DNA of 64,000 nucleotides from Dinoroseobacter sp. (GCA_965279125.1 CBDIHL010000038.1:124302-188301); one strand, 5' to 3'; numbered from the stretch's first letter, positions 1 through 22,919 are shown. Notes: generated by a model from the sequence alone, not told the origin. Numbers and translations are program-made.

Positions 1-435
1 GGCATTGCCGGTGGCGTTGGCGGCAATGCCGTTGGTCAGCAAGCCGCAGCGGCCAATCGCGAACTGGTTAAGCGCGATGAAGTGCTTGCGAACCTGCGGC
101 GCGTTTCAGGAGGTTTGACCGATGTCGAGCGTCAATTGCGGGCTGTCATTCGGTCGCAGAATTCGGAAATCCGGTCGTTGCGTCGCCAAGCCTCGGCAGG
201 TCAAATATCTGATTCTGCTGTGAGATCGCGGATCCGGTCGATCAACTCCAACCGCTCGGCAGTGTCGGCAACTCTTGGTCGGACCGAAGCAAACATGGCC
301 AACACAACGAACGAGATCAACCAAGCGCGTCAACAGGGCCAGCGAAACCTTGGCGCTCTGAGAAATGCATCGTCAAGCACCAAGAACCGGATCGCGCGTG
401 CGCGCAGCTCCATACGGACGGTTGCTGCCGACTAA
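1..435 (+). CDS. hypothetical Ser/Arg/Asn-rich coiled-coil protein; 5' end lies outside the window
   Basis: Frame 1 is open from nt 1 (GIAGGVGGNAVGQQAAAANRELVKRDEV...) through the listed ORF 82..435. Heptad-like R/S/N-rich sequence. The C-terminus (RSSIRTVAAD) resembles that of the next gene (RSSVRALAAS). Confidence 0.5.
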   Translation, partial: GIAGGVGGNAVGQQAAAANRELVKRDEVLANLRRVSGGLTDVERQLRAVIRSQNSEIRSLRRQASAGQISDSAVRSRIRSINSNRSAVSATLGRTEANMANTTNEINQARQQGQRNLGALRNASSSTKNRIARARSSIRTVAAD

Positions 436-524
436 GACGTGGCAATGCCTCAACCCAATCGCAGATTTTCAAAAGTCTGCGGTTGGCAAGACTCTCTTTA
501 ATCATAGGCAAGGATGGTGTCCCG

Positions 525-989
525 ATGGCTCCTAAACGTATTATTTTTCCGGTGGTCGCAACAGGATTTCTACTCTCAGGTTGTGTAACGGGCGATACGA
601 ACCCCGCAACGGCGGGATTGTTTGATAACATAAATAACTTGCGCAGCGGCGAATATGACCGACAAATTCGCGCCAAAGACGCCGAAGCCGCAGCGATTAC
701 GGCAGCCAATAATCGGAGCCAATCTAACGTCGCCGCCTTGCGCAGTGAGAGAGCCTCGAATGCCGCCTTGATTTCATCGCTGCGCGCAGAAATTGCTGGC
801 GTCCGCCAAGAAATCTCGCGGGTGCGTGCGCGGGTTAGGTCTGACCCAAGTAAGGTATCGCGTCTGAGCCAGTTTGAACGGCAACTCGGTGGCGTGGAAG
901 CGGATGTGAACCGTGGCAACGTCTCCCAAGCGACAAGTCGTGAGCTGAGCACAATTCGCTCGTCTGTGCGTGCTTTGGCCGCAAGCTAG
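525..989 (+). CDS. putative lipoprotein, coiled-coil
   Basis: Internal Met of ORF 483..989 gives MAPKRIIFPVVATGFLLSGC, a signal peptide plus lipobox (LLSG|C). The rest is Ala/Arg/Ser-rich and helical. Confidence 0.6.
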   Translation: MAPKRIIFPVVATGFLLSGCVTGDTNPATAGLFDNINNLRSGEYDRQIRAKDAEAAAITAANNRSQSNVAALRSERASNAALISSLRAEIAGVRQEISRVRARVRSDPSKVSRLSQFERQLGGVEADVNRGNVSQATSRELSTIRSSVRALAAS

Positions 990-1019
990 CGGGCAGATGA
1001 TGCGCGCCCATTCAGATTT

Positions 1020-2669
1020 TTGAGATATCGGAGCCTATCTGTGGAATACGCAAGAAAGTGCCTGCTTGGCATAACCGTAATTGCTGCTGCGTCCATTGCA
1101 TCTGCGGTTGGTGCCTTTGCGCAGGAACGTGTGACAACTGGCGAGCAGACCCGATATCCGGCCGAAGGGCTTGCCATTATTGATTGCGACCCGTCACCAC
1201 CTGCGCCCGAAGACAGTTGCGTCGTTCGGATGCCTCCGAAGAATATACGTCAGGGTGGCATTACGTTTTCCAATGCCGCCTCTGAGGGCGCGGGCTTCGA
1301 CTATTTTACAGGCGGAGATAACGGCTTTCCAAGCGAGCTCGTCGCCTCCGCAACGGCTATCGTTCTTGATATCACCTCCGGTCCGCGCGGTTTGCGGCAA
1401 GCGCGTTGGGAGACTGAGCGCGACTATGTCATAGAGTTTATCGAAGCACTGCCAGATGATGGCCTGGTCGCGGTCTATTTCCTAGATGATGAGTTGGACT
1501 TGCGTCTTGGCTTTACCAGCCAGAAGCGGCGCGCTGTCGACCTGATTTCGGGGCTAGATCAGCTTGAGGGCCGCAACACTGTTCTGGGAACGAACCTTGT
1601 GGACGTGATCGAAAGCGTTGGTCGACGTGACGATATCTTGCTGAAGAACGTCGTGCTGATTAGCGATGGTGAAGATGAAGCGCCTATCTTGTCCGGCACT
1701 GAAATCGCTGATGTGGCCATTCGCGAAGGCGTCACCTTGTCAACAATGGCAACGATTTGGCGGCGCGCTGGCGGCACCAGTTCAAACTCGGAAACACGCA
1801 GTACCGCGACCGCAACTTTGCGGGAAATGACGCGCAGGACATTGGGCACGCATGAAGTCATAGAGACATTCGACAGCACAGCCGGTGCCGAAGCCGCGAC
1901 GCGGTTTGCGAAAGATTTTGCCACTTCCATCGGTGAGTCTGGTCTGATTTTGCCGGATGGCGATCCCGTTTCTGCAGACATTAATCTGACTTATGGCACT
2001 CCGGTGATCGGGCGCCCCGGCGAGTTTGACACACAAGTTGCAACCGTATCGTTCGTTGCGTCTACGGCGAATACTGAAGCTACGCCTGAACCTACTGTCA
2101 CCGAAGCAGAGCCGGCTGAGGTAACGACTGGATTTGCAGGGTTTCCTTGGGGCTTTGAGGAGACAACTGTCTATGCAATCGCAGCTGCAATCGCGGCACT
2201 TTTGTTGTTCTTGCTTCTGTTTCTCATCCTTGGACGCCGCAATCGCGACGAGGCTGACGATAACGGCGTAGAGGATGGTGGTTTTGGTGATGGTCCGGGT
2301 TCAGACGAAACAAAAGACAAAACAGAAAGGATTGATGAAGATCCACCCGTATCGCCCCCTCCACCAGCGCGTGAACCTTGGGCCTACTTTGTCAGGCAAG
2401 ATACTGGTGACCGTTTGCCGATCTATGGGCGCAGGGCCAAAATCGGTCGAAGCTCAGAAAACGAGGTCGCCTTCCGAGATGACGACAACACTGTCTCGAG
2501 GTTTCACGCTGAACTGGATGTCACTGGGAAGAACCAGATGATGTTGTCGGACACCAACAGTGCAAACAAGACCTTCGTGAACGGCAAAGAAGTGAAATCT
2601 GCGACGCAGATCAAATCCGGAGACATCGTTGCCTTCGGAGACCGAGAAACGAAGTTCATCATTCGTTAA
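1020..2669 (+). CDS. bitopic membrane protein: signal peptide, periplasmic vWA domain, TM helix, cytoplasmic FHA domain
   Basis: N-terminal signal (LLGITVIAAASIASAVGAFA|QE). vWA-like core (AIVLDITSG ... VAVYFLDD ... VVLISDGEDE). TM AIAAAIAALLLFLLLFLILG. C-terminal FHA signature (KIGRSSENEVAFRDDDNTVSRFHAEL...NSANKTFVNG). Start is TTG 1020 or GTG 1041. Confidence 0.8.
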   Translation: MRYRSLSVEYARKCLLGITVIAAASIASAVGAFAQERVTTGEQTRYPAEGLAIIDCDPSPPAPEDSCVVRMPPKNIRQGGITFSNAASEGAGFDYFTGGDNGFPSELVASATAIVLDITSGPRGLRQARWETERDYVIEFIEALPDDGLVAVYFLDDELDLRLGFTSQKRRAVDLISGLDQLEGRNTVLGTNLVDVIESVGRRDDILLKNVVLISDGEDEAPILSGTEIADVAIREGVTLSTMATIWRRAGGTSSNSETRSTATATLREMTRRTLGTHEVIETFDSTAGAEAATRFAKDFATSIGESGLILPDGDPVSADINLTYGTPVIGRPGEFDTQVATVSFVASTANTEATPEPTVTEAEPAEVTTGFAGFPWGFEETTVYAIAAAIAALLLFLLLFLILGRRNRDEADDNGVEDGGFGDGPGSDETKDKTERIDEDPPVSPPPPAREPWAYFVRQDTGDRLPIYGRRAKIGRSSENEVAFRDDDNTVSRFHAELDVTGKNQMMLSDTNSANKTFVNGKEVKSATQIKSGDIVAFGDRETKFIIR

Positions 2670-2710
2670 GTGAACCAGCGCAGTCGACTGCGCAAATAAG
2701 GAACAAGGCC

Positions 2711-3355
2711 ATGGCTGGTAAGAAAGATGATCTTCACGACGAAACATCGCGTTGGATTTTCGACGACGATGAAACGGGGACCGACCGCGCCACGGAAGAT
2801 GCTGGCTTCACCAGCCATCTTGATGGTCCGCCGGATATGACACCACCTCCATTTGGGGGAGGCAGTTCCGCGTCCACGGTCGTCATTGGCGGCGGTTCAG
2901 ACGGCACCGTGATCGGAGGCCTCACAGGTCTGGGCGAGGACGAAGACAACGTTGCGGACGATCCTGTTGTAGGCTGGCTTGTCGTCGTCAAAGGCAAGGG
3001 CATTGGCCATTCGATCCCCCTTGGACCGGGTATTAACAGCGTCGGTCGGGATAGCTCAGAACGCGCACCCATCCCGTTTGGCGACACGCGAATTTCAAGC
3101 AAAGATCATGTGAAGATTGTCTATGACAATCAGGCGCGCGGCTTTTTGATTGCACCGGGATCCGGCAAAAACCCAACGCGTTTGGAACTTGCACCGACCG
3201 AGAAAGGTCCTCGTAGCACAATTGTCATGGTGGCGCAGCCTTTGGAAAGCTACGCGGTGATCCAACTGAGCGAGAAAACATCGGTGCGTTTTGTGGCCTT
3301 CTGCAACGAGGGTTTTGATTGGAGTGACGTGATCGACGAAGACGAGGCTAGCTAA
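2711..3355 (+). CDS. soluble FHA-domain protein with acidic/Gly-Pro-rich N-terminal region
   Basis: FHA signature GPGINSVGRDSSERAPIPFGDTRISSKDHVKIVYDNQARGFLIAPGSGKNPTRL. No TM segment seen. Confidence 0.8.
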   Translation: MAGKKDDLHDETSRWIFDDDETGTDRATEDAGFTSHLDGPPDMTPPPFGGGSSASTVVIGGGSDGTVIGGLTGLGEDEDNVADDPVVGWLVVVKGKGIGHSIPLGPGINSVGRDSSERAPIPFGDTRISSKDHVKIVYDNQARGFLIAPGSGKNPTRLELAPTEKGPRSTIVMVAQPLESYAVIQLSEKTSVRFVAFCNEGFDWSDVIDEDEAS

Positions 3356-3357
3356 GC

Positions 3358-4533
3358 ATGATCCCGGTCCATGGTCGGCAAAGCATCGGTCAACGAAAAT
3401 CTCAACAAGATGCGTATGAAATTGTTTTCGACAACGACAAGGATCCTGCGACCAACACGCTCATGCTGTTATCTGACGGCATGGGCGGACATGTTGGCGG
3501 TGAGATCGCCAGCAATATTGCGATAAAGTCGTTTGCAAAGCACTTCACCGAAATCTCCTCAGCAACACGTCCATCGGTGCGCCTGCGTGAGGCGCTCGAT
3601 TACGCGAATGCATCTATTGCGGGTCGGATAAAGGCAGAGCCAGACCTGTCTGGGATGGGATGTACCCTGATTGCCGGCCTGAAACTTGGCGATAAGTTTC
3701 ATTGGGTCAGCGTCGGGGACAGCATCGTCTATTTGTATCGAGGCGGAAAACTCAAGCGGATCAACGCGGATCATTCCGTCTATGGTGAACTGATCGAACT
3801 TGTCCGCCAAGGCAAATTAGACAAGGCCGAAGCGGATCAAAATCCTCGCAGACATGCTTTGCGGTCCGCATTGATCGGTGGCAAAATCTCACTCGTAGAT
3901 ACAAACGCAGTCGAACTTCAGCACAACGATCTTGTTCTCCTGGCGAGTGATGGGCTGGACACGCTTCAAGAGGCTGAAATCAAGCGATTGTTAGCGGCTG
4001 ATAAGTTAACGGATGTTCGCACGCTCTCGGCGCTTCTGCTGACTGCTGTTGAAGAGAAGCGTAAGCCACGCCAGGACAACACGACGGTTATCGTATATCG
4101 CCATCAGACTGGCAGTGCGAGCACGCTCGCAGGCTCTTCCGTTTGGAGCGGCGGCGCGTCCGATGATCCGCGTCCCGGCAAACGCGGCATGTTAATTGCG
4201 GGCATTGTTGGAAGTGCGCTCGCTCTGGCCGTGCTCATCTACCTGGTTGCCTTTGGCGGGCGTCAAGAGCCAGTCGTTATCGCCCCTCCGCCTGCTGTCG
4301 AGCCTACGGAAGAAAACAGTTTTTCCGGTGAGATTGGTGGATCTGACCGCGGCGATACGCAAACCGAAGGGATTGTGGGGGACGAAGAGTCCGCCGAGGA
4401 GGACATAGCACCTTCCGAGGACGCTGAAAGTGACGTTCAAGTTGCACCCGACACCGAGCAAGACCCCCCAGCAGATGCTGAGGGCGTGACGGCCGAAGAC
4501 GAAGAGACTTCTGCGGACGGTCAAGGAGAGTAG
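3358..4533 (+). CDS. PP2C-family Ser/Thr protein phosphatase, membrane-anchored, acidic C-terminal tail
   Basis: PPM motifs (SQQDAY, LLSDGMGGHVGGEIAS, LLASDGLD, DNTTVIV). TM MLIAGIVGSALALAVLIYLVAFGG. D/E-rich tail. Starts 2 nt after the preceding stop. Confidence 0.85.
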   Translation: MIPVHGRQSIGQRKSQQDAYEIVFDNDKDPATNTLMLLSDGMGGHVGGEIASNIAIKSFAKHFTEISSATRPSVRLREALDYANASIAGRIKAEPDLSGMGCTLIAGLKLGDKFHWVSVGDSIVYLYRGGKLKRINADHSVYGELIELVRQGKLDKAEADQNPRRHALRSALIGGKISLVDTNAVELQHNDLVLLASDGLDTLQEAEIKRLLAADKLTDVRTLSALLLTAVEEKRKPRQDNTTVIVYRHQTGSASTLAGSSVWSGGASDDPRPGKRGMLIAGIVGSALALAVLIYLVAFGGRQEPVVIAPPPAVEPTEENSFSGEIGGSDRGDTQTEGIVGDEESAEEDIAPSEDAESDVQVAPDTEQDPPADAEGVTAEDEETSADGQGE

Positions 4534-4536
4534 ACC

Positions 4537-5685
4537 ATGTCGATGGAACAGTCTCCTCCGCTGCCGATCGGAGAAGTCGTCGCTCAGGGGCGCTTTCGGA
4601 TTGCTTCCGTTCTTGGACGCGGCGCATTTGGAATAACTTATGAAGCGGTGCGCACAAGAGATGGAAAGCGTTTCGCGATAAAGGAATACCTGCCGTTCAA
4701 GACCTGCAGGCGGATGAACAAAGGTATTGTGCGTCCGTTGCCCGGCAAAGAAGCTGAGTTCGAGAAAGGCAAAGAAGTCTTTTATGAAGAAGCGCACATC
4801 TTAAGAAGCCTTCCGCGTCAGAGGGGGCTGGTAAAGGTTATTGGGGCCTCCGAGCGCAAAGGAACGTATTTGTGCATGATGGAGTTCATCGAAGGCAAGA
4901 CGATCAAAGAGCTGGTGCCAATGCTTGTTCAGCAGCATTCGCATGTCCCCGAAGAGATTATTCGCCAGTTCGTTTACCTGCTATCTGCCGCATTGCATTC
5001 CGTTCATACGAAAGCGCGACTGACCCACCGCGATATCAAGCCCGACAACATCATGATCCGCAAGTCGAACCGCGAACCGGTTCTCATTGATTTTGGTGCT
5101 GCGCGCCCCTTGGATCGGCATGTTGATATCCCTGACATGTATACGCCCCCCTATGCGGCGATTGAGCAGTTCAGCGTCCGCAAGACAGGCTACAATCAGG
5201 ATGCCAAAATAGGTCCTTGGACGGATCTTTTTGGCCTGTCCCTCGTTCTTTATGAAATGATGAGCCAAAGCTTGCCATTGCCGTCACATCAGCGGTGGGC
5301 TGCTTTGAAAGAAACCGGGAAAGATCCTTATGTTCCGATCCGAGAGAACCTCGCGCGCAATCGAATAAAGGCGACCTATTCTGACGACTTGCTTGATCTC
5401 ATTGATCGAGGGTGTCGATTGCTTCCGCATCAAAGGCCTCGCACTGCGAAAGAGTTTGCAAAAGCCTTGGGGCGCCCGCGCGAGACAGCCGAAGCCGGTG
5501 CACAGCACCAAAAGGAAGAAACGCGCATTATCGCAATTTGGACCGAAGGAGAGGCCGACGATAACCCGGTTGTCAGCCGTCTGCTTAGGATTTGGGAACG
5601 TGGCAAGCTTTTCTGGATCATTCTCATCCTCGCAGGTGCTGTGACCATCTTTTCCTACCTCTATGGTGCGGGGGTTTTTGAATGA
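4537..5685 (+). CDS. Hanks-type Ser/Thr protein kinase, C-terminal tail anchor, no extracytoplasmic domain
   Basis: GRGAFGITY Gly-loop, AIKEY Lys, HRDIKPDNIMI catalytic loop, DFGAAR. Single C-terminal TM LFWIILILAGAVTIFSYLYG, 5 residues from the end. Confidence 0.9.
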   Translation: MSMEQSPPLPIGEVVAQGRFRIASVLGRGAFGITYEAVRTRDGKRFAIKEYLPFKTCRRMNKGIVRPLPGKEAEFEKGKEVFYEEAHILRSLPRQRGLVKVIGASERKGTYLCMMEFIEGKTIKELVPMLVQQHSHVPEEIIRQFVYLLSAALHSVHTKARLTHRDIKPDNIMIRKSNREPVLIDFGAARPLDRHVDIPDMYTPPYAAIEQFSVRKTGYNQDAKIGPWTDLFGLSLVLYEMMSQSLPLPSHQRWAALKETGKDPYVPIRENLARNRIKATYSDDLLDLIDRGCRLLPHQRPRTAKEFAKALGRPRETAEAGAQHQKEETRIIAIWTEGEADDNPVVSRLLRIWERGKLFWIILILAGAVTIFSYLYGAGVFE

Positions 5686-6965
5686 TCAGGTCATTAGCGA
5701 TCTCCGTTGTGCTGTTTTTGATGTCGGTTATTCAGGTCTCGGGCCAAGATTTTGCTGAGCTGGGTCAGCGTGCTGAGAACGCTGTTGGTCGGGTGCTCAA
5801 TATCGTCGGAGACCGTGCGAGAGGATCCGGCACAGGTTTTGTGATCGGTGAGGCCGCGGAACGCGGCAGTTACTTCATGATTACCAACGAGCACGTCGTG
5901 GCGGATGCGTCTGCCTTGGTTGTTGGCTTTCGCAATGACGATGAGGTCGTCATTTTCCGGGCGCGCGTTCTTAGAGAATCCGTTGGATACGATCTTGCCT
6001 TGTTGCTGATCACCGCTCCATCCGATCCGTCGTTTCGGCCCGATAGTCTTAAGCTTGCAAACCGGGAGCTTGTGCGCGGCGAACCCTTGTTTGCGCTAGG
6101 CTTTCCGGGCGCATCACAAATTTTGGCGACTGGCCGAGATCAGGTTGGCGCGTACACACCGACCCTCACAACAGGCTCCATCAGCAAGGTATATGAAGGC
6201 ACATGGGGGCGGGGCCAGGCTCTCGAATTGGTTGAGCATTCGACAACGATCAACCCGGGCAATTCCGGCGGGCCGTTGATGGACGCCTGTGGGCATGTCG
6301 TTGGCGTGAACTCTGCGGGGCTGACTGAGCAGAACAATACGTTTTTGGCATCCTCACCCAATGCCGTTCGTGAGTTTCTGATCGGATCGAATGTCGCCTT
6401 TGATAACAGCAGTTCTTGCAACCCCGACAGCCTTTTAAGCTACCTATCGAACCGCAACGCGCTTTGGGTCGGATTGGCCTTCCTCGCCGTTGCAACCGTG
6501 ATGATGGTCGCGATTGATCGCGCAAATGGGGGCGGGGGAGCGCGCGCTGTGCGGCGCGTGTTGGTGATGCGGGTTCCGGCTCAAACCCCACGACGTGCCC
6601 CGAAAGCCGCGCCTAGAAAGACCCCCGAGCGGGCTGCCAAATCGACACGCGATAAGGCGGTTCTAAAGGTTGTAGCGCCGGGTCTTGGCATGACGGTTCC
6701 GCGCAAACTCACCAATCGAAATCTGGGCTCACAGGTCATCATCGGACGTTCATCAGAAGCCGATATTCAGATCGATAACTCACAGCTGAGCCGAAAGCAT
6801 GCGGCGCTCAGCCTGCAAGATCGCAAGCTTTTTATCGAAGACTTGGGCTCTTCAAACGGTGTGAGCGTGGATGGCGTTAAACTGGCCGCCAATGTTAAAC
6901 GCCAGATTAACACCAGCTCAAAGATAGAGCTGGGAGGGCAAGCGCTTGTCCTGTCACGGCCCTAG
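5682..6965 (+). CDS. bitopic membrane protein: signal peptide, periplasmic trypsin-like serine protease, TM helix, cytoplasmic FHA domain
   Basis: ATGA overlap with the kinase gene. Signal peptide (VVLFLMSVIQVSG). Catalytic-triad contexts TNEHVV, YDLALL, NPGNSGGPL. TM LWVGLAFLAVATVMMVAI. Basic Thr-Pro-rich linker. FHA signature IIGRSSEADIQIDNSQLSRKHAAL...GSSNGVSVDG. Confidence 0.8.
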   Translation: MIRSLAISVVLFLMSVIQVSGQDFAELGQRAENAVGRVLNIVGDRARGSGTGFVIGEAAERGSYFMITNEHVVADASALVVGFRNDDEVVIFRARVLRESVGYDLALLLITAPSDPSFRPDSLKLANRELVRGEPLFALGFPGASQILATGRDQVGAYTPTLTTGSISKVYEGTWGRGQALELVEHSTTINPGNSGGPLMDACGHVVGVNSAGLTEQNNTFLASSPNAVREFLIGSNVAFDNSSSCNPDSLLSYLSNRNALWVGLAFLAVATVMMVAIDRANGGGGARAVRRVLVMRVPAQTPRRAPKAAPRKTPERAAKSTRDKAVLKVVAPGLGMTVPRKLTNRNLGSQVIIGRSSEADIQIDNSQLSRKHAALSLQDRKLFIEDLGSSNGVSVDGVKLAANVKRQINTSSKIELGGQALVLSRP

Positions 6966-6974
6966 TGAATACGC

Positions 6975-7682
6975 ATGTCATACGCGTTAGAGATCAAAAA
7001 TGTCGGCGTTCACCTCAGTTCTACATTCGCGGTTGTGATTGAGGACTTTTCATTGAGCCGTGGCGAGACTGTTGTCTTAGATGCGCCAAGCGGAACCGGA
7101 AAAAGCACGGCCTTGGCATTGATTTCAGGCGCGATCGCGCATGATGAGTTCCCCAGTTGGCGTCATGTTATCGGTGGGAGACCGGTCACATCAGCGACCG
7201 CGCGGTCAGAATACGCGGCCTCCAAATCAATCGGGTTTGTGTTGCAAACAAGCAAGCTGGTTCCATTCTTATCGGTCCGCGAAAACATCGTCTTGCCAAG
7301 TCATGTGCAGGCCGAGCGATTTGAAACCTCTTGGTTTGAGTTTCTGGTTGGCAGCCTTGGAATTGCTGATTTGTTGGAACGCCATCCCAGCGAAATATCG
7401 ATTGGGCAGCGGCAGCGCGTCTCGATTGCACGCGCCATGCTGGGACAACCGACCGTTTTGCTGCTGGACGAGCCTGTTTCAGCTTTAGACCCCAACAACG
7501 TCACCAAAGTGGAGGAACTGATCCAATTGCTGGCCACCGAAGCGCAGTGCGGTGTGGTGTTGGCCAGTCACCAAGCCCACCGTGGAGTCTTCGACCAAGA
7601 ACCACGCGCGCACCATAGTGTCGTCGAACATGACGGCATCAGCTATAGCGTCTTTCGGCGCGATCCGGCTGGCCGCCAATGA
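6975..7682 (+). CDS. ABC transporter ATP-binding protein (LolD/MacB/TagT-like)
   Basis: Walker A APSGTGKST, degenerate signature ISIGQRQRVSIARA, Walker B LLLDEP, H-loop ASHQ. Confidence 0.85.
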   Translation: MSYALEIKNVGVHLSSTFAVVIEDFSLSRGETVVLDAPSGTGKSTALALISGAIAHDEFPSWRHVIGGRPVTSATARSEYAASKSIGFVLQTSKLVPFLSVRENIVLPSHVQAERFETSWFEFLVGSLGIADLLERHPSEISIGQRQRVSIARAMLGQPTVLLLDEPVSALDPNNVTKVEELIQLLATEAQCGVVLASHQAHRGVFDQEPRAHHSVVEHDGISYSVFRRDPAGRQ

Positions 7683-8866
7683 TGCAGGTCGCCGTCCAAT
7701 TGGCCGTCAAGGAATTGCGGCATGAATGGCGCGCGGGGCTCTGCCTCGTTGCGTCAATCGTCTCAATCCTCGCCCCACTTTTGGTTCTTCTGGCGCTCAA
7801 GAACGGAGTAATCGACGCTTTGGTCGAAGGACTTGTGGATGATCCAAGGAACCGCGAAATTCTATCGACACGCGCGTCCTCCCTAGATGCAGAGTTTTTT
7901 GCGAAATGGTCGCGAGATCCGCAAATCGACTTTATCAGCCCCCGGACGCGTGCCGTGAATACCCAAGTCAAAGCCGTTCAGAACAGCGCAAACCGCAAAG
8001 TCGTAGAGCCTGTTACGCTTTTGCCGTCTGGGCCAGGTGATCCGTTACTACCGAGCGGATCAACACAGCATGAAGGCGCGTATATTACGGAACGTTTGGC
8101 GCGCCAGATCGAATGGCAGGCCGGGGATGAAATTGTCCTGATCGCGGAGCGCACTATAAATGGCACCCTTGAGACCGCGCGCACGCGTCTGCCTGTTCAT
8201 GGAATTGTTCCAGAACGGTCTCTGCGCCAGCACGCGGTGTTTGTACCTTTGGACGTGTTGGTCGGCGTCGAGCGTTTTGTAGACGACCAATCGCTTGCGC
8301 CAGAGTTATGGATGACGGATGTCGAGATGCCCCAGGCATTTGCTAGCTTTCGTCTTTATGTGCGTGAGCTTGCCGACCTTGAAGAGGTCAATGAGCGATT
8401 GCGCGCCACCGGATTATCAACACGCCCCCTTGCACAAAATGCGGTGTCGCTGCTGGATTTCCGAACACGCTTGAACGGCCTGTATGCTGCAATTGCGGGT
8501 CTGGCCGTATTGGGATTTTGGGCCGCAATGGCTGCAAACCTAAGAGGTATGGTCGAGCGCCAACGCACGACGTTCAGCTTCCTCAACTTGATTGGCTATC
8601 AGCCGATCGTGCGTGCCAGTATGCCATTGATTCAATCGGTAACACTCGTTTTGCTTGGTATAGTCGCGTCCCTTGCAATCGTCTTACCGATGCTTGCGGT
8701 CGTGAATCTATTATTTCAGGATGAAGCTGACAATGTGGCTGTGTTGGGCTTGTGGGATATCGTGCTGACAATTGCTGTCGGCTTGTGTCTTGCATTGATA
8801 TCTTCAATTTGGGCGATCCGTGCTGCGGTTGCCGTTTCTGCGGACGAGGTACTTAGAAATGCTTAG
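7679..8866 (+). CDS. ABC transporter permease, FtsX/MacB type (LolC/E- or TagS-like)
   Basis: ATGA overlap with the ATPase gene. Topology is TM1, a periplasmic loop of about 220 aa, then 3 C-terminal TMs, as in the FtsX family. Confidence 0.75.
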   Translation: MMQVAVQLAVKELRHEWRAGLCLVASIVSILAPLLVLLALKNGVIDALVEGLVDDPRNREILSTRASSLDAEFFAKWSRDPQIDFISPRTRAVNTQVKAVQNSANRKVVEPVTLLPSGPGDPLLPSGSTQHEGAYITERLARQIEWQAGDEIVLIAERTINGTLETARTRLPVHGIVPERSLRQHAVFVPLDVLVGVERFVDDQSLAPELWMTDVEMPQAFASFRLYVRELADLEEVNERLRATGLSTRPLAQNAVSLLDFRTRLNGLYAAIAGLAVLGFWAAMAANLRGMVERQRTTFSFLNLIGYQPIVRASMPLIQSVTLVLLGIVASLAIVLPMLAVVNLLFQDEADNVAVLGLWDIVLTIAVGLCLALISSIWAIRAAVAVSADEVLRNA

Positions 8867-10475
8867 AAACGTGATGCAGATTTCGATTTGTTTTGGTTTG
8901 CTGTCGGTATTTGCCACACCTGCCATAGCCGAAATCGCCTGGAGGGACAGGCTGTACAACCCGGCGGCACTTGATGACGACGTCGTTCTACCAATGCCGT
9001 GCGACGGAGCGATGGTATTCCGCAAAGTCGAGACACCAAATAGGGATGGGGCCATCGGTGACGTTCCGTTTATCCTTGGCGAGGTCAATGAAGAGCAACC
9101 TTACCTAACCGGTCTGCGTCGCGCATTTGTGTCTGGACCGTTCTCATCAGCGGCGGACGGAACACAAAACCATTTCTACATGGCAAAATACGAGTTGGCA
9201 CAAATCCAGTTTGACGTCGTGATGCAACTGTTGAATGGGCAGGGATGCCCAGAAGGACGCGTGGGGCGTATTGACTTCCTACCCGTTGTCGATGTCAGCA
9301 AGTCAGAAATGGAGCGCTTTAGCGAGCTATATACGGTTTGGCTTCTTGAGAACGCGGCGGAGTCGTTGCCGCGATCAGGCAACACGACCGGATTTCTCCG
9401 CTTGCCGACAGAAGAAGAATGGGAGTTCGCCGCGCGCGGCGGCACGCGCTTGGAAGATGCCGCGTTTCGGGCCCCGCGTCCTCCGATCGAGCCTGGATCT
9501 GAGATCGCAGAATACATTGCCTATAATGGACCCGAAAGCGCGAATGGGGAAATACAATCCATAGGATTGCGCCGCGCCAACCCACTTGGCCTGCATGATA
9601 TGCTCGGCAATGTCGCTGAGATTGTGTCGACACCTTTCTCTATGGTGCGGCACGGGCGCCTGCATGGCCAAGCCGGGGGATACGTCAAACGCGGCGGTGA
9701 TGCACGCTCGCGTCTGGAACGGGTGACAAGTGCGACGCGGTTTGAAGTGCCTCCGTTCGATGAAATCTCGAAAAAGGTCTCGACGGATCGCTTTACGGGG
9801 GGGCGATTTGTAATTTCGGCGCAATCCATCACATCCCCCGAGCAGTTGGCCGCGATTGTTGCCAATCTAGAAGCATTGGCCCGGCCGGATGGTGCACTTG
9901 AGAATGCCGCATCAGAGGAAGAGGCAATGGCGCTTCTGGACGAAATCGCGGGCACGACCCCTTCCGCGCGCGAACGCCAGCAACTCGAAGTTGTCAAAAG
10001 CACAATTCTGGCGGGTCAAGCCGAACGGAACAGCCAGCGGGATCGGTCCATTCGCTTGGTCTTTGGTGCGACCACTTTGTTATGCGATCAAGCCATTCAG
10101 AGGTATTCAAATGCCTTGGCGATCGAGCCTTGGCTGGATGAATTTGCTGCAATGGAACAAACACCCGAAGTGCTTGAGGAAATCGAGTTTGCTCTGGACA
10201 GCATAAAATCACTTGAAGACCGTGCGCTTTCATCAAGTGCAGAATATGCTGATTTTCTGGAAGGAATGGCGGCTGATTACTCTCCGGCCTTGCTCGAGCG
10301 TCAGCTTCGTATCGTTATTGCAGATGTCGAGGATACGCAAACTCGACGCGGCCAGTGTTTTCTCGCGGCCGAGCGCCATCTTCTGGATCGCCTAAACCTT
10401 GGATACGCGAACATTCAGGCTATCGCGGAGGACTTTAAGTCCATTGCATTTGAACGCGCCCAAGCGCCGCAATGA
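8859..10475 (+). CDS. exported FGE-sulfatase (SUMF1/TagR-like) domain protein with helical C-terminal domain
   Basis: ATG 8859 overlaps the permease stop by 8 nt. Signal peptide MLRNVMQISICFGLLSVFATPAIA. FGE-family motifs RLPTEEEWEFAARGG and GLHDMLGNVAEIV. The listed ORF start 8820 (GTG) would lie inside the permease gene. Confidence 0.8.
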   Translation: MLRNVMQISICFGLLSVFATPAIAEIAWRDRLYNPAALDDDVVLPMPCDGAMVFRKVETPNRDGAIGDVPFILGEVNEEQPYLTGLRRAFVSGPFSSAADGTQNHFYMAKYELAQIQFDVVMQLLNGQGCPEGRVGRIDFLPVVDVSKSEMERFSELYTVWLLENAAESLPRSGNTTGFLRLPTEEEWEFAARGGTRLEDAAFRAPRPPIEPGSEIAEYIAYNGPESANGEIQSIGLRRANPLGLHDMLGNVAEIVSTPFSMVRHGRLHGQAGGYVKRGGDARSRLERVTSATRFEVPPFDEISKKVSTDRFTGGRFVISAQSITSPEQLAAIVANLEALARPDGALENAASEEEAMALLDEIAGTTPSARERQQLEVVKSTILAGQAERNSQRDRSIRLVFGATTLLCDQAIQRYSNALAIEPWLDEFAAMEQTPEVLEEIEFALDSIKSLEDRALSSSAEYADFLEGMAADYSPALLERQLRIVIADVEDTQTRRGQCFLAAERHLLDRLNLGYANIQAIAEDFKSIAFERAQAPQ

Positions 10476-10497
10476 CGCATATTCGGAGGATAACGGT

Positions 10498-10767
10498 ATG
10501 AGAGATACACTGAACAAATCCCTAGAGGGTCTCGTTTGGGTCGCAACCGGATTCTTGATTGTATTGTCTTGTTACCTAGGGGGCGTCTTCATCCGCGTCT
10601 CTGGTGAGTTAAACCTAGACATGATCTATGTCTTCGGTGGTCTGCTCTTCATCGTATTCGGCATAACAATGTCATTTGTGTTTGCAGGCCTGTGCTTTCA
10701 GATCATGGACATACGGAATTTTGCAAAGCACTCTGCGATTGGTTTGAAGAAAATTTCCCAGAAATAA
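10498..10767 (+). CDS. small hydrophobic membrane protein (89 aa), unknown function
   Basis: ATG 10498 is preceded by GGAGGA. Hydrophobic helices (VWVATGFLIVLSCYLGGVF; IYVFGGLLFIVFGITMSFVFAGLCF). The upstream part of ORF 10399 overlaps the FGE gene. Confidence 0.5.
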   Translation: MRDTLNKSLEGLVWVATGFLIVLSCYLGGVFIRVSGELNLDMIYVFGGLLFIVFGITMSFVFAGLCFQIMDIRNFAKHSAIGLKKISQK

Positions 10768-10804
10768 GCGCAGATGGGTTTGTGCACACAAGAAGGTAAG
10801 CGTG

Positions 10805-12214
10805 ATGACTGACGAACTCGACCTCGAACCTGGCACTGTCATTCAGGATACATACCGTGTGGATGAAATGCTGGGGCGCGGCGGCATGGGGGCTACGTTT
10901 CGGGGCGTGAACTTGGCGACGGGTCATGCGGTCGCGATCAAGATCATTATCCCGAGGCTTGCCGCAAACACGCGTGCGGTCGATTTGTTCAAACGAGAAA
11001 GCAGCATGTTGCGCACCGTACAGCATGACGCCGTCATCCGCTATGAGACGACATTGCAAGACCGAGACGGGCGTCTTTACTTGGTGATGGAATATGCTGA
11101 CGGTAAATCGCTCGCGGACTACATCAAAAAGGGCGCGCGCTTGCCAAGCGAAGGCGTCTTGAAGCTTGGTCTGCGACTTGCCGGCGGTCTGAGTGCAATT
11201 CACGGCTTGAACATCATTCACCGGGATGTGGCCCCCGATAATATCATCGCGCCAAAAGGGCAGATCGAGAAAGCGAAGTTCATCGACTTTGGTCTGGCCT
11301 CAGACACGGTCGGCACAGATCAGTCGATTATCGGCGATAGCTTTGCTGGCAAGATGAACTTCGCAGCGCCCGAACAGTTCGGCCTGTTTGGCAACAAGGT
11401 AACAAGCAAAACCGATTACTACGCTCTGGGTCTTGTTTTGATGAAAGTCGCAGGTCTTGCCATCCCCGGTGGCGGCAAAGGCATGGGCGCAGTCGAAGAT
11501 CGCCGGCAGGATGTCAAGATCGTGGGCTCGGATGCTTCCCCGGTCTTGGTGCGCACTTTGGAAATGCTGCTCAAAGCGGACCCTAATGATCGCCCCGATG
11601 ACGTTGTGCAGGTTTTCCGAGACGCACTCGTTGCACAAGAACGCGGCTCGGCGCCAGAAACGCCGACTGGCATGCCCGCAAAAGACACTTCCGACACTTC
11701 CAACGCTCAAGGCAGCCGTATCATGCTTGCCGGCGGGGGGGCTGTCGCCATCGTTGCGGTTGTGTCCGCCGCGGCGTTTTACATTCTTGGGCAAGGGGGC
11801 ACAGACCCGGTCCCGGTCGGTCCCGATAGCCTTGAACAGGCCGAAGCTGCACAGCAACTGCTTGCGGAAGATGACCCAATCGCACAGGCAAAGGCCACGA
11901 TCGAGAGCGGCGATAAAGGGCAGATTGGCGAGGTTTTGGGGGCAATGATCAAGCTCTTGGCCGACGAGAGCGCCGCGTCTGCTGTGCGCATTGAGGCCGC
12001 GCTGATCGTCGCGCGCATGTATGATCCCGAGACGTTTGATGCGCTGCGGTCTCCGTTTGACGAGCCAAATGCAACTGCGGCCCAACGGTATTACGAAGTG
12101 GCAGAACAACTTGGCTGGCAGGGCTTGCTTGAAACGCAAGACCGGGCAACCCGTTGGGCCGAACTGCGTGATAGCGTGTGGGACACAAAGACACTCGGAA
12201 AGGCGGAAACCTGA
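10805..12214 (+). CDS. Hanks-type Ser/Thr protein kinase with TM helix and a periplasmic helical domain of about 140 aa
   Basis: GRGGMGATF, VAIKII, HRDVAPDNII, DFGLAS, AAPEQ. TM IMLAGGGAVAIVAVVSAAAFYIL. The C-terminal region has a weak Sel1/TPR-like signature (AAQRYYEVAEQLGWQG). Confidence 0.9.
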   Translation: MTDELDLEPGTVIQDTYRVDEMLGRGGMGATFRGVNLATGHAVAIKIIIPRLAANTRAVDLFKRESSMLRTVQHDAVIRYETTLQDRDGRLYLVMEYADGKSLADYIKKGARLPSEGVLKLGLRLAGGLSAIHGLNIIHRDVAPDNIIAPKGQIEKAKFIDFGLASDTVGTDQSIIGDSFAGKMNFAAPEQFGLFGNKVTSKTDYYALGLVLMKVAGLAIPGGGKGMGAVEDRRQDVKIVGSDASPVLVRTLEMLLKADPNDRPDDVVQVFRDALVAQERGSAPETPTGMPAKDTSDTSNAQGSRIMLAGGGAVAIVAVVSAAAFYILGQGGTDPVPVGPDSLEQAEAAQQLLAEDDPIAQAKATIESGDKGQIGEVLGAMIKLLADESAASAVRIEAALIVARMYDPETFDALRSPFDEPNATAAQRYYEVAEQLGWQGLLETQDRATRWAELRDSVWDTKTLGKAET

Positions 12215-12215
12215 C

Positions 12216-14165
12216 ATGATGGGTCGAATGATCAGAGCACTTATCGCTGTAGCATTTGTAGTCAGCTTTCATACGGCGCCGCTTGCTGCGCAAGATGTCA
12301 GACCGCTGGTTATCGACGGGAAAGACACGCTGTTTCAAAGGGTTCTGTTGCGTAACAGAATACAAGCTCGCAGCGCACCGGATGGCGAGATCCTACGCAG
12401 CTTTGCGCCTCTGCAAGCGTTGTATGTCTATACGCGCCAACGCGACTGGCTCGAGGTTGCGCTTGGAACCGAGGGAGAGGACCGCGTTTGGATCCCTGAC
12501 GCCTCTGCGGTCGATTGGAACCAGAACATTGTTGCAACCTTGGAAGGCGGTGCCAATGTCGAGCGGCTGATGTTCTTTAGCGACGAGAACAGTGTCTACG
12601 ACATTATCGAAAGCGAAAACCCCGCCGCGGCAGCCGCACCATTTCTGGAAGCCGCATTAACGGCCGAGCAGGGGGGGGCTGCCTCGCAAGACGTTATTGC
12701 CTTGGGCCCGCAAGAAGCGATCGACCAGCGTAACAACCTTTATGTGATGCCCATTCTTGATGCGGAAAGGGCAATATTTGATGTTGGAGGCAGCGTAAAT
12801 GTCCTCAAAGTGGCCGTCGCCCGGTCTGACTTAGGCGGCCGGCTGCAACTGGATACCGAAAGTGCGACGACCGAGGCGGCCCGGCAAAATTTCAAAGCAG
12901 CTGTGGTGTTTGTCGTCGATACCACGATCTCGATGGAGCCTTACATCAACGCCACACGTGACGCGCTGGAAGAAGTCTATGCGCAAATTGCGCAGAAGAA
13001 TGAAACAGGCGTCGTCTCATTTGGCTTGATTGGATTTCGCGACAATGTCGATGCGGCACCGGGTTTGGAGTATGACGTCCAAACCTTTGTCAACCTTCAA
13101 GAAGGACGCGACGCCGATGCTTTTTTGGGCGGAATTTCTCGCATGACCGAAGCAAACGCGTCTTCGCGCAATTTTCGCGAAGATAGCTTTGCCGGGATCG
13201 AGTTCGCACTCACATCGCTGGATTGGTCCGATTTTGGGGCCAAGTATATCGTGCTGGTCACGGATGCGAGCCCGCGTGGCGCTGATGACGAACTCAGCGC
13301 AACCGGGCTTAGTCCGAGTGCCTTGAATTCCTTGGTCAAGGAACGGATCAAAGGCGTCATCGCGGCTCTGCACCTGCGCACGCCCAGAGGGGAGGCTGAC
13401 CATGCGCGGGCGGAAAACGCCTACACGGAGATGACACGGCAAACCAATGAAGCACCCCTCTACTTTCCTGTGGAAAATGGAGATGCCGAGATTTACCGAC
13501 AAACAGCGCGTGAGCTTGGGCGGTTCATTTCGGATCAGGTCATAAGCTTTCGCTCCGGGGACGCGCCTGAAGAGGCCGCTGATAGCTCCCTGTTTGCGGT
13601 GCAAGCATTGGCCTCTGCAGGCCGCACAATGCAATTGGCCTATCTCGGCAGCACCACAGGCACCGCGGCACCAGATGTCTTTGAAGCTTATGTCGTGGAC
13701 CGGGATTTTGATCGGCGCAGCCTCACGCCCCTGTCAATTCGAGTTTTGCTGAACAAGTCCGAGCTGAGCAACCTTGTCCAAGCTCTTGAAATCATTATCC
13801 AGAACATGGAAGAGAGCATCATCGCCCCGGACGAGTTCTTTTCGGGCGTGCTCGCCGCCGCCGCCGCGATGAGCCGCAATCCTGATACGCTCAACACGAG
13901 ATCTGATGCTACGCTTGCCGAGGCCGTGTCCATTTCCGAGTATCTCGATGGGCTGCCATATACCTCGGATGTGATGGGGTATACGCAAGAGGAATGGGTG
14001 CGCCTTACAATCCCTGAACAGGTCAACATCCAGAACGATCTCTATGCGAAGTTGCAGCTTTATCGCAGCTACAACCAGTCAACGGATCTGTGGGTCGATT
14101 ATCTTGGGGCCGGACCATCCTCGGAGAACTTGCTTTACCCGATGCCGGTCTCAAGCTTGCCTTAG
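12216..14165 (+). CDS. exported vWA-domain protein
   Basis: ATG sits 1 nt after the kinase stop. Signal peptide MMGRMIRALIAVAFVVSFHTAPLAA|Q. vWA core with MIDAS-like VVFVVDTTISME, GLIGFRDN, KYIVLVTDASPRG. The listed start 12021 would overlap the kinase by about 190 nt. Confidence 0.8.
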   Translation: MMGRMIRALIAVAFVVSFHTAPLAAQDVRPLVIDGKDTLFQRVLLRNRIQARSAPDGEILRSFAPLQALYVYTRQRDWLEVALGTEGEDRVWIPDASAVDWNQNIVATLEGGANVERLMFFSDENSVYDIIESENPAAAAAPFLEAALTAEQGGAASQDVIALGPQEAIDQRNNLYVMPILDAERAIFDVGGSVNVLKVAVARSDLGGRLQLDTESATTEAARQNFKAAVVFVVDTTISMEPYINATRDALEEVYAQIAQKNETGVVSFGLIGFRDNVDAAPGLEYDVQTFVNLQEGRDADAFLGGISRMTEANASSRNFREDSFAGIEFALTSLDWSDFGAKYIVLVTDASPRGADDELSATGLSPSALNSLVKERIKGVIAALHLRTPRGEADHARAENAYTEMTRQTNEAPLYFPVENGDAEIYRQTARELGRFISDQVISFRSGDAPEEAADSSLFAVQALASAGRTMQLAYLGSTTGTAAPDVFEAYVVDRDFDRRSLTPLSIRVLLNKSELSNLVQALEIIIQNMEESIIAPDEFFSGVLAAAAAMSRNPDTLNTRSDATLAEAVSISEYLDGLPYTSDVMGYTQEEWVRLTIPEQVNIQNDLYAKLQLYRSYNQSTDLWVDYLGAGPSSENLLYPMPVSSLP

Positions 14166-14192
14166 ACATTTGGGCCTGATGAGGCTGTCGAA

Positions 14193-14675
14193 CTAATCCC
14201 AGCCAAACGCTGGCAGTCTTACTTTGACCTCCTCGGGCACGGGCAACGCGGTAATGGGACGCGTATCCGTGCCGTGACCGGCCCAGATCCGGGTTTCTTC
14301 GCCGCGCGCGTAGATGGCCCCCTCGGGCCCGCGAAACTGGTGGCCGATCTGGAACGAGGTGCGGCCCCAATGAAGGATGCGGCTTTCAATCGTCAGAACC
14401 GTGCCTTGCTTGGCCGGGATCATGAACTCTGACCCGGTCTTGACCAGCGGATGACCCAACAGATCAAAGCGCGTGGCCAAAACTTCGGCGCTATAGCCCG
14501 CGCGCGCAAAGAGGCGCCACGTGGCTTGGTCGAACCAGCGAAAGTAGTTGGGATAAAAGACTATTGCCGCCGGATCGCAATCACCGAACTCTATGGTGAC
14601 GCTATGCACCGGGCTTGCGTAAATCTCGGGCAGGGCGGGCGGCGCGGTCATGCGCCCTCGGTCGGCAGTGTTCAT
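14193..14675 (-). CDS. hotdog-fold acyl-CoA thioesterase (4HBT/YbgC family)
   Basis: Motif context GDCDPAAIVFYPNYFRWFDQATWRLF is typical of 4HBT-type thioesterases. The gene lies 13 nt downstream of iorB on the same strand. Confidence 0.7.
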   Translation of the reverse strand: MNTADRGRMTAPPALPEIYASPVHSVTIEFGDCDPAAIVFYPNYFRWFDQATWRLFARAGYSAEVLATRFDLLGHPLVKTGSEFMIPAKQGTVLTIESRILHWGRTSFQIGHQFRGPEGAIYARGEETRIWAGHGTDTRPITALPVPEEVKVRLPAFGWD

Positions 14676-14688
14676 TCTTAACCCTCTT

Positions 14689-18404: not shown

Positions 18405-18491
18405 CTTGCAGTCCTCGATTGCAGGTCAAACACCGTCGCCGTGACGTGGACCATACCCCCAAAATCGGCAGGCGTGCCGACAAAATATAGT

Positions 18492-18516
18492 TTGACACCC
18501 AACTAAATTATGTCAA
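18492..18516. promoter_or_regulatory. inverted repeat TTGACA-N13-TGTCAA in the iorA/TRAP divergent region
   Basis: 6-bp arms only. TTGACA also equals a sigma-70 -35 consensus. Candidate MarR site, but the statistical support is weak. Confidence 0.25.
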
Positions 18517-18581
18517 CCATAAAGCAGTGCCACAGACATAGCTTCGTCGTGTGGCGGTATTTTCTGGGAGGAGGATCACTT

Positions 18582-19598: not shown

Positions 19599-19602
19599 GC
19601 CT

Positions 19603-20112: not shown

Positions 20113-20136
20113 GCTTTTTGACTTGGGACGTGCCTG

Positions 20137-21444: not shown

Positions 21445-21457
21445 GAGCCAGCGAGAC

Positions 21458-21958: not shown

Positions 21959-21970
21959 ATGAAAAGGCAA

Positions 21971-22000
21971 ATCCCCCGCCTCATTTCTGGGGCAGGGGAT
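21971..22000. terminator. hairpin between convergent marR and sugar-transferase genes (possible bidirectional terminator)
   Basis: ATCCCCcGCC ...loop... GGCaGGGGAT, an imperfect 9-10 bp stem with no clear U-tract. Confidence 0.35.
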
Positions 22001-22030
22001 ATCCTTTGGAAGGGGACCTTCGGCGCGCGC

Positions 22031-22882: not shown

Positions 22883-22919
22883 TCCAACTCAGGTCGGGGT
22901 TTTGAAGATGCAGGCCGCG

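Follow-up and report, generated by a model that had tools for sequence, protein, structure and literature searches.

In Pseudomonas aeruginosa, the threonine-phosphorylation pathway (TPP) of the H1 type VI secretion system (H1-T6SS) runs from TagQRST through PpkA to Fha1, with TagQRST as the signal input (PMC13584744, PMC3953482). The use of this sensor module without a T6SS is already known in outline, because Tag-like genes beside srfBC without a T6SS were reported in 2013 (PMC3608642), and 'Lol-like + vWA + SUMF1' genes beside srf genes, also without a T6SS, have been noted as well (bioRxiv 10.64898/2026.09.18.752743). Here we analyzed a stretch of 64,000 nucleotides (nt) from Dinoroseobacter sp. 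(GCA_965279125.1 CBDIHL010000038.1:124302-188301; this whole stretch is called the window below), whose positions 1-14165 hold 13 tightly packed plus-strand open reading frames (ORFs), g0-g12, which a first-pass annotation had described as an orphan cassette of TagQRST/PpkA/PppA/Fha-like parts. The analysis suggested that this cassette would be an autonomous, envelope-spanning phosphothreonine switch which joins two modules without a linked T6SS, a reading that we regard as somewhat probable. Module B (g0, g1 and g7-g12) contains the sensor and a PpkA split into two genes, and module A (g2-g6) contains FHA readers, a PP2C phosphatase and a second kinase. The 13 genes are as follows, with lengths in amino acids (aa) and transmembrane segments abbreviated TM.

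g0, 1..435, plus strand: C-terminal 144 aa of a glycine-zipper and coiled-coil lipoprotein, TagQ-like
g1, 525..989, plus strand: coiled-coil lipoprotein with an LSGC lipobox; the ORF opens at 483 and the likely start is M525
g2, 1020..2669, plus strand: signal peptide, periplasmic vWA domain, TM, cytoplasmic FHA domain
g3, 2711..3355, plus strand: small cytoplasmic protein with a disordered N-terminus followed by a divergent FHA domain
g4, 3358..4533, plus strand: PP2C phosphatase, TM, acidic C-terminal tail
g5, 4537..5685, plus strand: Hanks-type Ser/Thr kinase with a C-terminal TM anchor, the kinase of module A
g6, 5682..6965, plus strand: signal peptide, periplasmic trypsin-like serine protease, TM, cytoplasmic FHA domain
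g7, 6975..7682, plus strand: ABC ATPase of LolD/DevA type, TagT-like
g8, 7679..8866, plus strand: FtsX/LolE-type permease with four TM and a large periplasmic loop, TagS-like
g9, 8859..10475, plus strand: exported FGE-fold protein with a helical C-terminal domain, TagR-like
g10, 10498..10767, plus strand: small membrane protein of 89 aa with two TM
g11, 10805..12214, plus strand: PpkA-type kinase, TM, periplasmic Sel1/TPR-like domain, the N-terminal half of a split PpkA
g12, 12216..14165, plus strand: exported vWA protein of 649 aa, the extracytoplasmic half of the split PpkA, starting 1 nt past the g11 stop

The 13 packed genes on one strand are borne out by the ORF coordinates, the first gene being cut by the window edge, and the domain content as first annotated (two kinases, one PP2C, three FHA and two vWA domains, a trypsin-like protease, an ABC/FtsX pair and an FGE-fold protein) was recovered by Pfam/NCBIfam, hhalign and AlphaFold2 (AF2)/Foldseek. 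Eleven of the 13 products, all but g3 and g7, carry a signal peptide, a lipobox or a TM and are thus placed at the envelope (for g0, as judged from its full-length orthologues). By predicted topology, g9, g12, the g2 vWA domain and the g6 protease are periplasmic, and the FHA, kinase and PP2C domains face the cytoplasm.

Starting from relatives of g6 and g9, we reached six loci in which all 13 genes recur in unchanged order; they are listed here.

L001 and L002, two marine metagenome-assembled genomes: 13-gene cassette
L004, a metagenome contig: 13-gene cassette
L006, the Tabrizicola sp. M-4 chromosome: 13-gene cassette
L086, Cereibacter sphaeroides: 13-gene cassette
L096, Rhodobacter capsulatus: 13-gene cassette

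The conservation of neighbourhood that the first-pass annotation had proposed to check across Rhodobacterales is thus found in R. capsulatus, C. sphaeroides, Tabrizicola and others. L006 came from a contig scan with the protease motif [NS]PGNSGGPL, which otherwise returned mostly HtrA-like loci. By BLAST against five of the loci, every gene of the window has an orthologue in each at 30-58% identity, the least conserved being g2 and g6 and the most conserved g10-g12, and a metagenome scan seeded with g3 added ten further copies, full or truncated at an end. The order of the cassette is therefore kept in 17 loci (the window and 16 others) despite identities of 30-58% and differing flanking genes.

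As T6SS comparator we used a syntenic metagenome locus, L097, which stands in for the P. aeruginosa TagQRST/PpkA proteins (e.g. PA0071). Its gene order, Fha (T6SS_FHA_C)-TssJ-TssK-TssL-TssM-TagF-PpkA-like-ABC-FtsX-FGE-two lipoproteins-TssA-TssB-TssC-Hcp, is one that we take to be that of the P. aeruginosa H1 locus, PA0070-PA0085. The results showed that g7 is 34% identical to the L097 ABC ATPase (E 3e-29), g8 34% to the FtsX permease over 344 aa (E 2e-36), and g9 34% to the FGE protein over 512/538 aa (E 2e-83), and the order ABC-FtsX-FGE is the same in the cassette and in L097. The 995-aa PpkA-like protein of L097 is matched by two genes of the cassette, g11 with its kinase domain (42% over 270 aa, E 8e-63) and g12 with residues 354-995 (33% over 651 aa, E 8e-107), in comparison to only 26% identity between that kinase domain and g5. 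For the lipoproteins, a hidden Markov model (HMM) of the g0 orthologues scored 45.7 bits on the 255-aa L097 lipoprotein which follows the FGE gene, at the TagQ position, and g1 is 36% identical to the 173-aa L097 lipoprotein over 61 aa with an HMM score of 29 bits; both profile matches are specific. Compared with L097, g9 thus corresponds to TagR (an FGE-fold protein, COG1262), g8 and g7 to TagS and TagT, and g0, with a predicted outer-membrane location, to TagQ. Because of these pairwise and profile matches, module B is, at the level of sequence, a set of true homologues of TagQ/T/S/R and PpkA, so that the likeness first noted from the sequence alone is one of descent, with 33-42% identity to L097, mostly over full length, and with g0 and g1 recognized by profile.

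The orthologues of g0 are 235-272 aa long (typically about 236), bear the lipobox L-x-[AG]-C and are 43-54% identical to the fragment in the window, and the corresponding identity for g1 is 44-53%. The matches of the g0 orthologues to Rick_17kDa_Anti and Gly-zipper families are sub-threshold at 19-24 bits (PF05433, 19-23 bits vs a cutoff of 24.2), and as glycine-zipper lipoproteins they fit the resemblance that has been published between TagQ and the Rickettsia 17-kDa antigen (PMC3608642). The glycine-zipper lipoprotein g0 is a closer counterpart of TagQ than g1 by itself. Among the remaining components, g7 matches ABC_tran with 84 bits, and g8 shows the 4-TM topology with an FtsX score of 25.2 bits vs a cutoff of 25.5, its profile matching LolE/LolC/LolF/YtrF/FtsX in the PDB at E 7e-6. 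For g10, which has two hydrophobic segments, the profile search gave no family match; its orthologues are 54-58% identical in L004 and L086, the gene is called in L096, and tblastn finds it in most metagenome cassette copies.

The PpkA of T6SS loci is a single polypeptide, and in the window and all other cassettes its kinase and vWA halves are adjacent genes. An exhaustive search with g12 returned proteins of about 1000 aa, including P0391 and P0394, whose C-terminal 630 residues match the whole of g12 and whose N-terminus is a protein kinase, that is, the PpkA architecture. The kinase g11 scored 126.7 bits for Pkinase and has its TM at residues 306-324. The vWA domain of g12 is sub-threshold in Pfam, and the AF2 model (mean predicted local distance difference test, pLDDT, 81) was matched by Foldseek to integrin I/vWA domains at E 1e-8 to 1e-6, with a TM-score of 0.70 to 1aox. 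More than 100 full-length homologues of g12 were found, almost all from Rhodobacterales, and more than a dozen of them, among the matches listed, carry the JGI label 'PpkA'. One metagenome protein, P0401 (1041 aa), carries an AAA_22/ExeA-like ATPase, in place of a kinase, N-terminal to its g12-like vWA region, and so adds a third mode of linking the periplasmic vWA part with a cytoplasmic domain.

The FGE-fold protein g9 scored 73 bits for FGE-sulfatase, carries a signal peptide, and its full-length homologues (42-58% identity) number more than 100, with very few outside Rhodobacterales. In FGE/SUMF1 the catalytic cysteine pair follows an RGGS motif. Among 23 homologues of g9 no conserved cysteine was found after the invariant R278-G279-G280, and the invariant cysteines of the family are at positions 48, 409 and 500. 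Since no conserved cysteine is seen at the site of the FGE catalytic pair, and the solved structures nearest to g9 are those of PorK/GldK and SUMF2, which are not enzymes, g9 probably serves in binding and not in catalysis.

In its FHA proteins the cassette departs from the T6SS switch. The only match to the Fha1/TagH-type family TIGR03354 was that of g2, at 18.6 bits vs a cutoff of 120, PF20232 gave no match, none of g2, g3 and g6 had a BLAST match to the L097 Fha protein, and no TagF is present in the cassette. The TagQRST/PpkA/PppA/Fha-like label is borne out for TagQRST and for PpkA, the latter split in two genes, and not for a Fha1/TagH-type protein. The absence of T6SS genes from view extends to the window and the 16 other cassette copies: no T6SS family was found among the 20 largest downstream ORFs of the window, tblastn with 11 T6SS proteins gave no match in the whole 64-kb window or in any cassette locus, and a T6SS homologue was seen in 0 of 17 cassette loci, with 0.5-7 kb of upstream DNA (5-7 kb in six loci) and up to 50 kb of downstream DNA in view. 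In comparison to the H1-T6SS TPP, the cassette shares the homologous ABC, FtsX and FGE proteins, two lipoproteins and PpkA kinase and vWA parts, together with a PP2C and FHA readers. It differs in that T6SS genes are out of view, a TagH/Fha1-type FHA protein and TagF are lacking, PpkA is split, the gene order is changed, an extra kinase is present, the PP2C is membrane-anchored, and FHA domains are joined to periplasmic vWA and protease domains.

The proteins that carry these FHA domains belong to module A. The FHA domain of g2 scored 57.8 bits, with the motifs GR, SxxH and N-T kept in seven orthologues and the TM at residues 386-404; its vWA domain is sub-threshold in the window copy (VWA_2, 22.6 bits) and clear in the orthologues, and with 31-35% identity g2 is one of the two least conserved genes. 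The other, g6 (30-38% identity among cassettes), scored 88.5 bits for Trypsin_2 and 56.6 bits for FHA, with the TM at 260-278. Among 20 relatives of g6 the protease residues His71, Asp104 and Ser195 are invariant, as are G355, R356 and H373 of the FHA domain, and S370 is nearly so. The domain calls and topology agree with the first-pass annotation that these FHA readers are bitopic proteins with periplasmic vWA or protease domains. The kinase and the phosphatase of the module look intact: g5 (Pkinase, 109.5 bits; TM 358-376) conserves AxK, HRD and DFG, and g4 (PP2C_2, 44 bits; NCBIfam Stp1-type, 155 bits; TM 279-297) keeps the motifs DGMGGH, NADHS, ASDGL and QDN in seven orthologues.

The third FHA domain, that of g3, has no Pfam match. 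It was aligned by hhalign to the FHA domain of the g6 family with 73% probability (E 3e-5), its best PDB profile matches are FHA domains (E 0.08-0.2), and the GR and SxxH motifs are conserved. In its N-terminal part (window 2711-2960) Thr34, Thr56 and Thr66 are invariant in seven orthologues within a poorly conserved segment, and Thr66 lies in a [DE][KR]T-x-I motif. These threonines are candidate phospho-acceptor sites, and g3 looks like a phospho-switch of the GarA/OdhI style.

Relatives of g3 numbered 461 in metagenomes, and in all 27 loci of at least 9 kb (27/27) a PP2C gene directly follows g3; in module A, g4 always accompanies g3. Outside Rhodobacterales the g3-PP2C pair occurs with g5-like kinases and with trypsin-TM-FHA and vWA-FHA proteins and without module B, examples being L094, L122, L141, L151, L163, L164 and L173. 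On gene content, g2-g6 is thus an independent and widespread system, which in Rhodobacterales is fused with the PpkA/TagQRST sensor. Because module A occurs elsewhere without module B, the FHA-tethered periplasmic proteins would be no local rebuild of Fha1, and the view that the FHA readers had been rebuilt from the T6SS switch has to be given up: g2 and g6 belong with g3, the PP2C and g5 to a separate module which also occurs without Tag-like genes.

One distant relative of the g6 cluster, L094:8106-17896, comprises a trypsin-FHA protein, a vWA protein, an FHA protein, MotA/ExbB, a further FHA protein, an unknown protein, a PP2C and a 1056-aa kinase with Sel1 repeats, without ABC/FtsX/FGE genes. 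The neighbourhood of another distant g6 relative, P0008, is unrelated.

Module B also has close relatives in another setting. A tblastn search of plasmids with g9 and g12 returned a vWA-ABC-FtsX-FGE block, followed by homologues of g0 and g1, directly after srfA-srfB-srfC, with the block preceded by a Sel1 protein that is 39% identical to the periplasmic part of g11. It is found on 114 Klebsiella plasmids, in Leclercia, Lelliottia, Enterobacter, Haematospirillum, Tistrella and Thiodictyon, and on Cereibacter plasmids, the arrangement being as follows.

L088, K. pneumoniae pPM48TC_140, 1775-16087 (also L089, L090 and L091): srfA-srfB-srfC-(TPR/Sel1)-vWA-ABC-FtsX-FGE-two small proteins

The Srf loci are without a T6SS. 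The full-length homologues of g7, g8, g9 and g12 in these loci are 28-37% identical (g7 33-35%; g12 33-34%, full-length), the orthologue HMMs of g0 and g1 scored 43.4 and 33 bits on their counterparts, the Sel1 part of g11 is present, and a protease gene lies nearby, the latter being a serine protease gene close to the block on C. sphaeroides pA and in Haematospirillum. A second VWA gene is seen near the block in Leclercia and Haematospirillum. In contrast to the cassette, the partners of the Srf-linked module are SrfA/B/C and not active kinases, a PP2C and FHA proteins, and its vWA gene never adjoins a kinase gene; tblastn with SrfA, SrfB and SrfC from L091 in turn gave no match in the window or the cassette loci. 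An Azospirillum brasilense megaplasmid (L095, NZ_CP059450, about 17000-27100, a record without annotation) bears on its minus strand a divergent form of the vWA-ABC-FtsX-FGE block, at 25-33% identity, after which come an S41 peptidase and large proteins without an assigned family, with Wadjet genes (JetA, SMC-like) about 11 kb away; no T6SS genes were found on checking this megaplasmid variant.

Three further known systems resemble parts of the cassette. The 'TerY-P triad' is an operon type with a vWA protein, a Ser/Thr kinase and a PP2C, in which the TerY-type vWA proteins are cytoplasmic and stand-alone. The triad is mentioned in passing in PMC10542128, and Deinococcus DRA0331-0334 is a vWA, kinase and PP2C (+FHA) operon (bioRxiv 10.64898/2026.01.23.701218). 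The cassette shares with both the domain types brought together in one operon and the logic of phosphothreonine writer, eraser and reader, and its vWA, PP2C and kinase genes do co-occur. It differs from the triad in that its vWA and protease domains lie in the periplasm, joined across the membrane to FHA domains; no TerY-family match was found in Pfam/NCBIfam, and both vWA domains of the cassette are predicted to be periplasmic. With the actinobacterial FhaA-FhaB(FipA)-PstP-PknA/PknB cluster it shares, as a resemblance only, membrane-anchored FHA proteins, a TM-bearing PP2C and two Hanks kinases, and FhaB/FipA gave the best NCBIfam FHA matches (38-55 bits, under the cutoff of 125). RodA/PbpA and PASTA domains are absent from the cassette, the envelope is Gram-negative, and the vWA and protease domains are periplasmic. 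ABC systems of the MacB/FtsEX/BceAB type likewise have a 4-TM FtsX-fold permease with a large periplasmic domain and a cytoplasmic ATPase, and some of them signal to membrane kinases; the partner in the cassette is a Hanks-type kinase with vWA and FGE-fold co-receptors and not a histidine kinase or an amidase activator.

The layout of the cassette bears on how far the unit extends. From the coordinates, the spacing is 47-89 nt between g0 and g1 (depending on the g1 start), 30 nt for g1/g2, 41 for g2/g3, 2 for g3/g4, 3 for g4/g5, -4 (ATGA) for g5/g6, 9 for g6/g7, -4 (ATGA) for g7/g8, -8 for g8/g9, about 22 for g9/g10, about 35 for g10/g11 and 1 for g11/g12, so that the gaps in the block range from 1 to 89 nt and three gene pairs overlap, by 4, 4 and 8 nt. 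In a scan of the block, promoter- and terminator-like sites were no commoner than in shuffled sequence, and a single operon g0-g12 is therefore plausible. The window opens about 0.3 kb inside g0, and in most orthologous loci two conserved divergent genes lie just upstream of g0, one for a protein of about 190 aa with five TM, which matches no family, and one for an RDD-FHA membrane protein of 263-267 aa.

Divergent 5-TM and RDD-FHA pair, upstream of the cassette: L001:2445-3832, L002:2016-3403, L004:2547-3910 and L006:2330-3699

Given this conservation, the real unit probably comprises 15 genes and extends about 2 kb past the window start, and the pair is expected to sit just outside it. Among other neighbours of the orthologous cassettes, phage-type genes (Tail_completion_gp17, HK97-gp10_like and Phage_connect_1) lie directly downstream in R. 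capsulatus (L096:15205-16832), a PhdYeFM antitoxin gene lies upstream in L001 and L002, and an NTP_transf_2 gene is beside it in L001.

The low GC content of positions 1-14000 was considered as a sign of a transferred island and this was rejected: the GC content of the cassette follows that of its host in six other genomes (0.52-0.70), so that the low value in the window is no evidence of recent transfer, and no tRNA gene was found anywhere in the window. The 20 largest downstream ORFs are of housekeeping kind and include an indolepyruvate-oxidoreductase-like pair, a TRAP transporter, an exopolysaccharide cluster, CheA, sugar-utilisation genes, IMPDH, a hybrid histidine kinase, RecA and AlaRS. 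Within 22000-36000 and 38000-42000 lie the exopolysaccharide-type cluster (a Wzz/GNVR tyrosine-kinase-like protein, two GT4 glycosyltransferases, a flippase and a GINT1_N-like protein) and the CheA gene, the latter in a stretch of lower GC content (0.52-0.56), and two long minus-strand ORFs, 25424-27187 and 27078-28547, are without a Pfam match.

The reading of the cassette as an autonomous switch builds on the homologies, the predicted topologies, the intact catalytic and phosphothreonine-binding motifs, the conserved gene order and the absence of T6SS genes in view; from these we infer the stimulus, the direction of signalling, the substrates, and periplasmic proteolysis or binding as the output. 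Module B would be the sensor, in which the lipoproteins, the FGE-fold g9, the vWA protein g12 and the LolCDE-like ABC/FtsX pair would respond to an altered envelope by switching on g11, by way of the periplasmic Sel1-like domain of this kinase and of the adjacent g12, as TagQRST does for PpkA. Module A, together with the upstream RDD-FHA protein of other genomes, would be the reader and output. The kinase g11 and the tail-anchored g5 would write phosphothreonines, to be read by the FHA domains of g2, g6, g3 and the RDD-FHA protein, and since g2 and g6 span the membrane, FHA binding could cluster, re-position or activate their periplasmic vWA and serine-protease domains. The small protein g3 may serve as phospho-switch or adaptor, and the membrane PP2C g4 would reset the system.

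Several points weigh against this reading. The MIDAS (metal-ion-dependent adhesion site) motif of g2 is incomplete, the T6SS comparator is a metagenome locus in place of the P. aeruginosa proteins themselves, and the signal could flow in the opposite direction, from cytoplasm to periplasm. The T6SS negatives cover the window and the DNA of the cassette loci, a scope with which a distant T6SS target is compatible, and reviews list TagRST in Rhodobacter T6SS loci. In addition, a metagenome contig (L172:53-20072) has module A at a distance of 2.4 kb from tssA-tssB-tssC-impE, with a GYF/Yip1 gene on the opposite strand between them; the module there comprises three tandem trypsin-TM-FHA proteins, one vWA-FHA protein, a g3-like FHA protein, two PP2C and two kinases. 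This proximity may be due to chance, being seen in one of 27 loci, though it keeps the T6SS link open.

The autonomous switch also has a more far-reaching form, which we put forward only tentatively. PpkA/TagQRST would be a general envelope alarm with a non-T6SS output as its ancestral or alternative role, and in Rhodobacterales it would switch on the periplasmic protease and vWA domains from inside to outside via FHA. If true, this would be cytoplasmic control of periplasmic proteolysis, for which there is no described precedent in Gram-negative bacteria.

Among the rival explanations, the most probable, though we think it unlikely, is that of an ordinary T6SS regulatory arm which is unlinked, senses envelope damage and controls a distant T6SS in trans. 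The homology of module B to the T6SS-embedded PpkA/TagT/TagS/TagR/lipoprotein set, the TagRST listed for Rhodobacter T6SS loci and the tssABC genes near module A in L172 all speak for it. Set against these are the 17 loci with no T6SS gene in the flanking DNA in view, the lack of TagF and of a Fha1/TagH-type protein with T6SS_FHA_C, the four or five FHA proteins that the cassette itself brings, periplasmic domains included, and for which a T6SS switch would have no need, and the service of the sensor module in T6SS-free srfABC loci (PMC3608642).

It is quite unlikely that the cassette is an export or maturation machine, in which the Lol-like ABC/FtsX pair and the FGE-fold protein would process g0/g1 or the vWA proteins or release them to the surface, with the kinases tuning the process. 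The nearest solved relatives of g8 are indeed LolE, LolC and LolF, two lipoproteins are encoded in the operon, and the same reading has been proposed for the Srf-linked module (bioRxiv 10.64898/2026.09.18.752743). However, the P. aeruginosa TPP, the sole studied relative, uses TagQRST as PpkA input and not as an exporter (PMC13584744, PMC3953482), g9 is without conserved cysteines of the FGE catalytic pair and resembles the non-enzymatic PorK/SUMF2, and the kinase-vWA fusion in T6SS relatives argues for signalling.

Least probable of all is a conflict or anti-phage system of vWA, kinase and PP2C, in which the FGE-fold and vWA proteins would recognise an invader at the envelope with the protease as effector: the conflict systems described in PMC7159879 do use vWA, FGS and trypsin domains repeatedly, no other genes of the cassette evolve as fast as g2 and g6, and toxin-antitoxin genes or phage remnants lie beside some copies, but PADLOC gave only generic matches (kinase, PD-T4-6 and mad6; trypsin-domain; coiled-coil, LmuB, 25 bits, g1), there is no MoxR, STAND or GTPase core, and the GC content tracks the host with a gene order that is stable across the whole order, unlike typical defence islands. 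Neither PADLOC nor NCBIfam gave a system-level identity for the cassette.

On the whole, the first-pass annotation was largely right in its central idea. With regard to novelty, the components of the autonomous switch belong to families already known, and Tag-like modules without a T6SS had been noticed earlier, so that the claim of the first-pass annotation that no such system was described has to be narrowed: T6SS-free Tag-like genes beside srfBC are in print (PMC3608642; bioRxiv 10.64898/2026.09.18.752743), and the kinase/PP2C/FHA cassette itself was not found in the literature searched. What appears to be undescribed is the split PpkA, its fusion with the FHA-tethered protease/vWA module, and the conservation of the whole across the order, in model phototrophs.

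Work on how TagQRST/PpkA senses envelope damage has been confined to Pseudomonas, where T6SS firing served as the sole read-out. A T6SS-free version in the tractable R. capsulatus and C. sphaeroides would let the sensor be studied apart from the secretion machine, and it is an advantage for such study that the kinase and the vWA co-receptor are separate proteins here. As the same sensor module adjoins srfABC on more than 100 Klebsiella plasmids, the analysis suggests a shared, uncharacterised envelope-sensing unit which is plugged into at least three partner systems. In general, the cassette also points to unexplored outputs of bacterial Ser/Thr phosphorylation, in which FHA domains are tethered across the membrane to protease and vWA domains.

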